From Escherichia phage CharmingMan: DNA of 40,665 nt. Position numbers and translations under genes: made by a program. Location of the stretch: the sequence record PP925830.1; one strand, given 5' to 3'. Positions 19,012-19,440 of the stretch are shown here, piece after piece (within the stretch, counting starts at the first letter, position 1; every line of letters begins with the position of its first letter). The notes below the pieces were generated by a model, which did no database searches, had not been told where the DNA came from, and saw only the letters and a program-made list of their open reading frames with translations.

Positions 19012-19039
19012 TTGACACTGTACAAATAACCAGTATAAA
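19012..19039 (+). promoter_or_regulatory. Sigma70-type promoter (-35 TTGACA, -10 TATAAA) with embedded LexA-box-like site CTGTACAAATAACCAG
   Basis: TTGACA 19012-19017; CTGT-N8-CCAG 19018-19033 (one mismatch to CTGT-N8-ACAG); TATAAA 19034-19039; 37 nt upstream of the dinI-like ATG. Confidence 0.5.
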
Positions 19040-19076
19040 TTCTCTTTTCAAAATACAGTCGTTTTCGGAGGTCTTT

Positions 19077-19343
19077 ATGTTCGTTGAGCTGGTCTATGAC
19101 AAGCGTAATGTCAATGGGTTGGTGGGAGCCAGGGAGATAATCCTGGCAGAGCTGACGAAGCGAGTGCACCAGATTTTCCCTGATGCCGAAGTGAAGGTGA
19201 AGCCGATGCAGGCGAACGCTTTAAATAGTGACGCCAGCAAAAGTGATCGGGAAAAGCTGAACCGCATGCTTGAGGAAATGTTTGAAGACTCCGATATGTG
19301 GTTGGTTTCCGATTCTCCAACAGTCCGTCAGGTTGGACTTTAG
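19077..19343 (+). CDS. dinI: DinI-family protein (DNA-damage-inducible protein I homolog)
   Basis: 88 aa: MFVELVYDKRNVNGLVGAREIILAELTKRVHQIFPDAEVKVK...EEMFEDSDMWLVSD matches the DinI pattern; GGAGG 5 nt upstream. The longer track ORF from 18888 would include its own promoter and is rejected. Confidence 0.75.
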   Translation: MFVELVYDKRNVNGLVGAREIILAELTKRVHQIFPDAEVKVKPMQANALNSDASKSDREKLNRMLEEMFEDSDMWLVSDSPTVRQVGL

Positions 19344-19399
19344 CTATCTCTCAGGTACTATTCCCGGCGATTGCTCGGGCATGAACACTGAGCAACCAC

Positions 19400-19440
19400 C
19401 CGCCGCCTGTTCTTGCATACGACAGGCGGCGGTTTTCTTT
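19400..19440 (+). terminator. Rho-independent terminator after the dinI-like gene
   Basis: Perfect 11-bp stem CCGCCGCCTGT (19400-19410) / ACAGGCGGCGG (19422-19432), 11-nt loop, then TTTTCTTT; overlaps the tail-fibre stop on the other strand. Confidence 0.65.

Follow-up and report, generated by a model that had tools for sequence, protein, structure and literature searches.

A predicted LexA-repressed dinI-family module near attL in a lambdoid prophage of Enterobacter hormaechei

The dinI-family gene and its product

We analyzed a 40,665-nucleotide (nt) stretch of DNA from Escherichia phage CharmingMan (sequence record PP925830.1), called the window below, with a focus on positions 19012 to 19440. 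This locus carries a gene for a small protein of the DinI family together with a promoter, a predicted LexA operator, a ribosome binding site, and an intrinsic terminator. Coordinates are those of the window, and features lie on the plus strand except where the minus strand is named. The gene occupies positions 19077 to 19343, including the stop codon (19341 to 19343), and encodes 88 amino acids (aa). A preliminary description of the locus, made from the sequence alone, had assigned it to the DinI family, and database searches bore this out. Pfam PF06183 was matched over profile positions 3 to 63 of 63 (80.2 bits against a cutoff of 24.2; E = 1.4e-22), PHROG 189, "RecA filament binding protein DinI," was matched at E = 2e-21, and the PDB entries for E. 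coli DinI (1GHH and 7YWA) were matched at E = 5e-7. Judged by these matches, the protein is a DinI-family member; it is of the MsgA type. Several sources name it "virulence protein MsgA." The exact 88-aa protein is present on at least 336 contigs, which are named from Enterobacter hormaechei, and close relatives are encoded on more than 590 IMG/VR contigs.

The substitution pattern indicates that the protein, read in the plus-strand frame, is under strong purifying selection: the median ratio of nonsynonymous to synonymous substitution rates (dN/dS) was 0.046 at a dS of ~1 (6410 pairs from 145 distinct coding sequences). Because this ratio marks selection in the 88-aa frame, we dismissed both the antisense open reading frames (ORFs) and the N-terminally extended gene calls of 126 and 151 aa. 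The antisense candidates at 19094 to 19267 and 19111 to 19320, like the antisense gene annotated in phage phi80, have no support. The longer ORF at 18888 to 19343 (151 aa), which begins at an in-frame upstream ATG, runs through the promoter and operator and was rejected as an over-extended start. Database calls of 126 aa, and calls of 112 to 145 aa held for homologues in public databases, were set aside as annotation artefacts; the upstream sequences are unrelated among the homologues. The conserved N terminus is MFVELVYDK, which follows the GGAGG site described below.

Residues that contact RecA were taken from the cryo-electron microscopy (cryo-EM) structure of the E. coli RecA-DinI complex (PMC9926225) and mapped onto the window protein through alignments. 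They comprise a pocket (L13, L21, W71, W77, and F78) and an acidic patch (E24, E69, and D76). Six of these eight residues are conserved or conservatively replaced, with L21 corresponding to I22 of the window protein, E24 to E25, E69 to E67, W71 to F69, W77 to W75, and F78 to L76, and all six mapped positions vary little or not at all across the family. L13 falls outside the alignment; L15, which is invariant in the family, may be its equivalent. Residues 65 to 79 (…LEEMFEDSDMWLVSD) align with …LQETWESADDWFVSE of E. coli DinI, the acidic, C-terminal amphipathic helix with its tryptophan, and W75, F69, and E66 are invariant among 20 homologues.

The closest nonphage counterparts are MsgA of Salmonella and the 79-aa chromosomal proteins of other Enterobacteriaceae, which belong to the same subfamily, are 80 to 95% identical to the window protein over residues 1 to 79, and have a LexA box upstream. 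In contrast to the window gene, members of this 79-aa class lack the C-terminal tail described below, reside in nonphage contexts, and are followed by simple terminators without the conserved 3′ block discussed in a later section.

Promoter, LexA operator, and SOS control

Upstream of the gene, a −35 hexamer (TTGACA; 19012 to 19017) agrees with the consensus at 6 of 6 positions and is invariant in phages phi80 and mEp237. It is followed after a 16-nt spacer by a −10 hexamer (TATAAA; 19034 to 19039) that agrees at 5 of 6 positions. The hexamers were read from the sequence, and a consensus scan returned the same promoter in an alternative reading with an 18-nt spacer and TAAATT as the −10 element. 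With 11 of 12 consensus positions, this is the sole σ70 match of at least 11/12 on either strand of the 40.7-kb window, where Markov simulations lead one to expect 0.35, and the near-consensus promoter of the preliminary description is therefore present and unique in its class. We infer a transcription start at ~19046 to 19050. A Shine-Dalgarno sequence, GGAGG, lies at 19067 to 19071, 5 nt before the ATG, and GGAG is kept at this place in many homologues.

The spacer of the promoter is filled by a predicted LexA operator, CACTGTACAAATAACCAGTA (19016 to 19035), in which CTGT (19018 to 19021) and CCAG (19030 to 19033) are separated by 8 nt. To score it, we used a position-specific scoring matrix (PSSM) trained on 21 LexA sites of E. 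coli, which themselves score 13 to 27 bits; 17 of these sites were verified against PMC3009722 (Table 4), and the E. coli dinI site was excluded from the training set. The operator scored 21.0 bits, the best value in the window, compared with 13.5 bits for the runner-up and with 16.8 bits for the 95th percentile of the maximum score in 100 shuffles of the window. The box that had been noticed between the −35 and −10 elements is within the quality range of bona fide E. coli LexA sites and is the only strong one in the window. It is identical at 19 of 20 positions to the E. coli dinI box, CTGTATAAATAACCAGTATA (PMC3009722, Table 4). Its position suits repression, covering the whole spacer and overlapping both hexamers. 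The loose pattern CTGT-N8-MCAG is not rare in the window (6 occurrences against 2.2 expected by chance), so that the weight rests on the score of the box and its position and not on the bare pattern.

Two further sites with resemblance to LexA operators were seen. At 19053 to 19059, downstream of the −10 element, comparison of upstream regions revealed ATACAGT, a relic right half-site. The second LexA operator to which it belonged is intact in relatives such as loci L010, L015, and L018 and has lost its left half in the window; a PSSM scan around this position gave nothing above 6.7 bits. The runner-up site, CTCTGGATAAATCAACAGGA (12183 to 12202; 13.5 bits), lies between cI and cro and overlaps operator-like repeats (CAACAGG and CCCACAGGTAAT). 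As shuffled sequences reach 13.5 bits, this likeness is probably coincidental.

LexA boxes are a near-constant feature of the gene family. We scanned the 100 nt upstream of 84 homologous genes, drawn from 82 bacterial loci and the window, and found a box scoring 13 bits or more for 83 of them (median, 22 bits), compared with 0.25% of 1583 control windows. A box was likewise found within 100 nt upstream in 62 of the 66 viral loci for which enough upstream sequence was available. It has been kept over at least four nonhomologous promoter architectures, where it occupies the spacer, as in the window, a place downstream of the −10 element, or both. Retention of the operator across promoters that differ in this way is strong evidence, at the level of sequence comparison, that selection maintains LexA control of these genes.

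Experiments on relatives agree with such control. In the Gifsy prophages of Salmonella, regulation of the dinI-antirepressor operons depends on the LexA box (Lemire et al. 2011; PMC3121763), and nalidixic acid raises expression of the Gifsy dinI homologues 4.6- to 23-fold and that of msgA 3.4-fold (PMC8072944). DinI-like genes with LexA sites next to tail fiber genes are common (PMC7556043), and a work cited in that paper is credited there with finding the dinI-like gene of phiKO2 to be LexA regulated. By the quality, position, and conservation of its box, the window gene would be a member of the LexA (SOS) regulon, with induction by DNA damage shown in its relatives only.

The end of the transcript and the 3′ untranslated region

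An intrinsic terminator at 19400 to 19440 was identified by folding and by compensatory changes. Its G+C-rich stem of 12 bp (19400 to 19411 paired with 19421 to 19432) encloses a 9-nt loop and is followed by TTTTCTTT (19433 to 19440). The stem consists of 11 Watson-Crick pairs and one U·G pair, in keeping with the strong 11-bp-stem terminator described previously, and compensatory changes were found at three of its pairs among 23 variants. The 9-nt loop kept the hairpin out of a generic terminator scan, which allows at most 8 nt. The U tract overlaps the stop codon of the convergent tail fiber gene (19439 to 19441, minus strand). On the minus strand, an Rfam search returned a partial match to CssrB (Shigella sRNA B) at 19401 to 19480, which covers the 3′ end of the tail fiber gene and the terminator hairpin and lies below threshold (35.5 bits against a gathering value of 76; E = 2e-5). 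We rejected identity with CssrB, since this hit is merely the terminator hairpin; the match suggests that the hairpin also ends tail fiber transcripts.

The terminator bears on whether the gene might be the leader of a LexA-controlled antirepressor operon, in which dinI would accompany the actual induction switch, as in the dinI-gfoA/gftA-irsA operons of Gifsy prophages or tum of phage 186. Such an architecture is documented in related Salmonella prophages (PMC3121763), and the PHROG 189 profile has 151 positions with the DinI domain in its second half, an arrangement reminiscent of Tum. The 88-aa product, however, is the DinI domain alone, the stop codon is separated from the terminator stem by 56 nt in which no plausible ORF fits, and the transcript would end at a covarying terminator. 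Furthermore, the window contains no second strong LexA box, its repressor is a self-cleaving cI of the lambda type, and its Ant-like gene belongs to the early-left operon and has no LexA box. With no room for a further ORF, a terminator directly after the gene, a single LexA box, and a cleavable cI, we rejected an operon of the Gifsy or 186 type as highly improbable. The Ant-type antirepressor homologue itself (16048 to 16791; PHROG 1726, E = 2e-72), encoded between cI and xis, is unlikely to be an SOS sensor because no LexA box lies nearby.

Comparison of the 3′ untranslated regions (3′UTRs) revealed a conserved block of 25 nt, TTGCTCGGGCATGAACACTGAGCAA (19371 to 19395), with an 8-bp stem and a 9-nt loop. 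In seven loci chosen by protein similarity, pairwise column identity was 0.97 in the block and 0.58 in the whole 3′UTR. The conservation of the block equals that of the best coding stretch, in contrast to the variable terminator and remainder of the UTR. We found the exact block in 96 IMG/VR contigs, each time 30 nt (6 nt in a deletion variant) past the stop codon of an 88-aa DinI ORF.

This conservation raises the alternative that the transcript also, or mainly, acts as an RNA, the block and the terminator forming an SOS-induced small RNA (sRNA) derived from the 3′UTR or a cis-acting stability or processing element. A precedent is DinR of Klebsiella pneumoniae, an Hfq-dependent sRNA that is cut from the dinI mRNA's 3′ end (PMC10907235). 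The window shares its layout, a lineage-specific conserved 3′UTR segment just before a Rho-independent terminator on a dinI-family mRNA with predicted LexA control. The tie of the block to the 88-aa dinI class is strict, the block was found in 49 of 80 viral loci that had been selected by protein, and the 3′UTR as a whole folds well (−39.8 kcal/mol; z = −3.8). Against an RNA function, the block was found in 7 and is missing from 9 of the 16 88-aa genome loci, several variants have poor U tracts after the terminator, and the low dN/dS marks strong selection on the protein itself. Because the stem is invariant, covariation cannot occur within the block.

Searches for a family or a partner of this RNA were negative. 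An Rfam search of the plus strand matched no family, and antisense targets of the block within the window did not rise above chance. Pairing with ftsZ was evaluated with the E. coli leader (positions −60 to +30) in place of the Enterobacter one; the energy of −23.2 kcal/mol was equaled by 67% of dinucleotide shuffles, so that complementarity is not in excess. The block thus has neither a sequence or Rfam relationship with DinR nor its complementarity to ftsZ, and it comes from a phage gene of MsgA type, whereas DinR comes from the canonical dinI of its host. We regard the hairpin block as a lead, not a finding, and consider a phage-borne, SOS-induced regulatory RNA, whether an sRNA or a protein- or RNase-binding element, to be unlikely. 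If it were real, a single LexA-controlled transcript of the prophage would supply both a modulator of RecA and a riboregulator, in parallel with dinI and DinR of Klebsiella but with a different target.

Position in the prophage and possible effects on induction

The coding, promoter, operator, and terminator evidence makes it probable, to the extent that sequence can tell, that the locus is a monocistronic, LexA-repressed moron encoding a RecA-filament modulator and situated at the attL-proximal end of a lambdoid E. hormaechei prophage. Several observations weigh against parts of this interpretation. The protein scored only 40.2 bits against the cutoff of 111 bits for the NCBIfam equivalog NF007893 and is just 36% identical to E. 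coli DinI; falling so far below the threshold for host DinI, it belongs to a paralogous MsgA-type subfamily and is not an orthologue of host dinI. The acidic RecA-contact residue D76 is replaced by methionine (M74). Residues 80 to 88 (19317 to 19340) form a conserved C-terminal tail of 9 residues, [SF]PxVRQVG[LIVM], which is typical of the 88-aa class and absent from E. coli DinI and the 79-aa MsgA class. An AlphaFold2 model has a compatible β-α-β-α order, with a mean predicted local distance difference test (pLDDT) score of 56.8 and a predicted template modeling (pTM) score of 0.40, and is too uncertain for a fold search. The right half of the LexA box reads CCAG and not ACAG; the E. coli dinI, recN, and cho boxes likewise have CCAG (PMC3009722). 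Finally, nonpolar deletions of the Gifsy dinI homologues left the levels and rates of induction unchanged (PMC3121763). This last result is weak evidence, since Gifsy phages use antirepressors and not cleavable repressors. What the window gene and its product share with E. coli DinI (1GHH; RecA-DinI cryo-EM structure, 7YWA) is the Pfam family, a near-identical operator, and the acidic C-terminal helix with its tryptophan; it differs in overall identity, in the D76 position, in the extension, and in that the gene is phage borne.

The locus had been described as an autonomous module between attP and the tail fiber gene, and its surroundings agree with this. To the left, an attP core at ~18787 to 18806 forms the boundary of the module. 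It was located by two comparisons: homology with related E. coli prophages, in which int abuts the host DUF72/yecE gene, ends at window position 18803, and identity with the attL of E. hormaechei lysogens, that is, between phage attP and the 5′ part of host yecE, begins at …AACTGCGTGACGCGG…. The dinI promoter lies ~200 bp and the ATG ~270 bp to the right of the core. Where the identical protein is encoded on an E. hormaechei chromosome, the gene order is ruvCAB, aspS, yecD, a 36-aa yecE 5′ fragment, dinI, and a convergent tail fiber gene, so that in these lysogens the prophage genes at attL begin with the dinI homologue, after yecD-yecE′. In IMG/VR, the gene is within 2.5 kb of the contig end in 70 of 80 loci, consistent with an attL-proximal place.

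On the plus strand, the window carries cI, the early-left operon, xis (17121 to 17405), and int (17461 to 18774); the minus strand carries the tail fiber gene (19439 to 20728), which converges with the dinI homologue, and J-like tail genes. The cI repressor (12274 to 12951) has the S24 domain ascribed to it earlier. Its C-terminal domain is lambda cI-like (E = 1.5e-26 to lambda cI), with a VQAG cleavage motif, a GDSM serine, and an FKKL lysine.

Three side observations concern the neighborhood of the module. On either side of the attP core lie direct copies of CCCCAYNNATGCCCCA, at 18713 to 18728 (in the 3′ end of int), 18922 to 18937, and 18963 to 18978 (the latter two in the P′ arm); three were found on the plus strand where 0.72 was expected, and these repeats probably serve as arm-type sites for Int binding. 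Just past the int stop codon, right at the core, an imperfect plus-strand hairpin read by eye (GCCCGTCA…TGACGCGGC) is followed by AATTTTAAAAA; this stretch (18783 to 18812) might be a tI/sib-like element for transcripts leaving int. Beyond the tail fiber gene, a patch of low G+C content (~0.41) holds a 120-aa ORF on the plus strand (20855 to 21217), against the direction of the tail genes on its flanks. Its product has a lipoprotein signal (…LLLLAGC…) and matches PHROG 25729, with no match in Pfam; the gene may be a second moron, encoding, for example, a superinfection exclusion lipoprotein.

Modules of this kind, with LexA control and a site beside tail fiber genes, are already present in the literature and in GenBank annotation, and what the window adds is a particularly simple architecture. 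Phage phi80 (NC_021190, gp27) has a dinL gene with an annotated "predicted LexA binding site," and gp25 of mEp237 has an annotated consensus promoter. Nucleotide identity of both with the window is ~79 to 80% from the P′ arm of attP through the promoter, operator, coding sequence (CDS), and terminator; the two phages agree with the window in both promoter hexamers and in where the operator lies, protein identity is 91%, and the gene converges with a tail fiber gene. mEp237 shares with the window the 88-aa form and the 3′UTR block, whereas phi80 encodes a 79-aa protein without the tail and differs in the 3′UTR upstream of the terminator. Unlike the window, phi80 and mEp237 have a perfect CTGT-N8-ACAG box, and ahead of their modules lie a Pin invertase gene and the relic of an attL junction (a 5′ fragment of host yecE), with the working attP more than 1 kb away. 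The attL-type junction, composed of the yecE 5′ fragment and the P′ arm, was seen at 2926 to 3075 of the phi80 locus (L001) and at 2905 to 3075 of the mEp237 locus (L002) in comparison with 18690 to 18860 of the window and 5615 to 5785 of locus L181; the phi80 record labels the fragment a DUF72 pseudogene. The presence of this junction upstream of dinI argues that the module was captured from the end of an integrated prophage, host DNA included.

The term moron, which denotes an additional phage gene complete in itself, fits on two counts. The module is an autonomous unit with its own promoter and a covarying terminator, convergent with a late tail fiber gene and split from int when the phage is integrated, and its CDS occurs in mosaic fashion with different promoters, tail fiber genes, and integration modules. 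Gifsy-1, -2, and -3 likewise carry a DinI-family gene in a lambdoid prophage under a promoter with a LexA box. In contrast to the monocistronic gene of the window, which lies next to attP in a phage with a cleavable cI, their dinI heads an operon with a small antirepressor gene and irsA downstream of replication genes, and their repressors are not cleaved.

For a LexA-repressed moron, we envisage the following sequence of events. In the lysogen, host LexA bound to the spacer-filling operator of this very strong σ70 promoter would block RNA polymerase. DNA damage would activate RecA, LexA would cleave itself, and the promoter would fire to give an mRNA of ~390 nt that stops at the intrinsic terminator shared with the convergent tail fiber gene and is translated into the 88-aa MsgA-type DinI protein. 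E. coli DinI binds in the groove of the RecA filament through the L2 loop and K232, R243, and K245, elements that LexA, UmuD, and lambda CI use as well (PMC9926225); it stabilizes filaments at stoichiometric levels, and high levels inhibit UmuD cleavage and recombination. By homology, the window protein would bind the groove of the RecA-single-stranded DNA filament through the L2 loop and the basic patch of K232, R243, and K245, stabilizing filaments at moderate levels and, at higher levels, competing with the groove binders UmuD and the lambda-type cI of the phage. The lysogen would in this way gain an SOS-timed dose of a RecA-filament modulator beyond that of host DinI.

Whether induction of the phage would be affected is a separate matter. 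The preliminary description proposed that the gene could tune the timing of RecA-mediated cI cleavage, and we regard an effect on cI cleavage or induction timing as plausible on mechanistic grounds, since DinI and lambda CI share contacts in the filament groove, yet as rather doubtful, with its direction uncertain. Competition between an extra groove binder and the slowly cleaved cI could raise the induction threshold or delay it; stabilized filaments could, on the other hand, prolong the activated state of RecA (RecA*). Of these, delayed induction or a raised threshold looks likelier than promoted induction. We found no paper in which a phage DinI was tested against cI cleavage, and the Gifsy deletions were the sole related experiment found.

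The unchanged induction after those deletions (PMC3121763) is also what one would expect of a lysogenic conversion gene, whose product mainly promotes survival of the lysogen under DNA damage, antibiotics, or host defenses by damping the coprotease output of RecA or by stabilizing repair filaments, with no meaningful effect on phage induction. Other observations point the same way. Near-identical 79-aa versions have kept their LexA boxes in conserved, chromosomal, nonphage contexts, in E. coli, a prophage DinI-like gene showed a statistical association with emerging quinolone resistance (PMC10575684), and the window gene lies at the prophage end and would, like many morons, be expressed from the repressed prophage. 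The MsgA virulence name used by several sources would fit as well, but the label is inherited from the annotation of Salmonella msgA. We consider conversion a realistic possibility, though one that we would not bet on; it is compatible with a LexA-repressed moron that modulates RecA filaments, as the two share one molecular mechanism and part only over who benefits.

Few accessory genes are as common in lambdoid prophages of the Enterobacteriaceae as dinI homologues under LexA control. The present locus offers a clean test case, because it has one gene and one operator, no antirepressor in the module, and a cleavable cI of the lambda type in the same phage. The question that it poses is whether a RecA-groove binder supplied by a phage shifts the induction threshold, SOS mutagenesis, or antibiotic tolerance in clinical Enterobacter lysogens.

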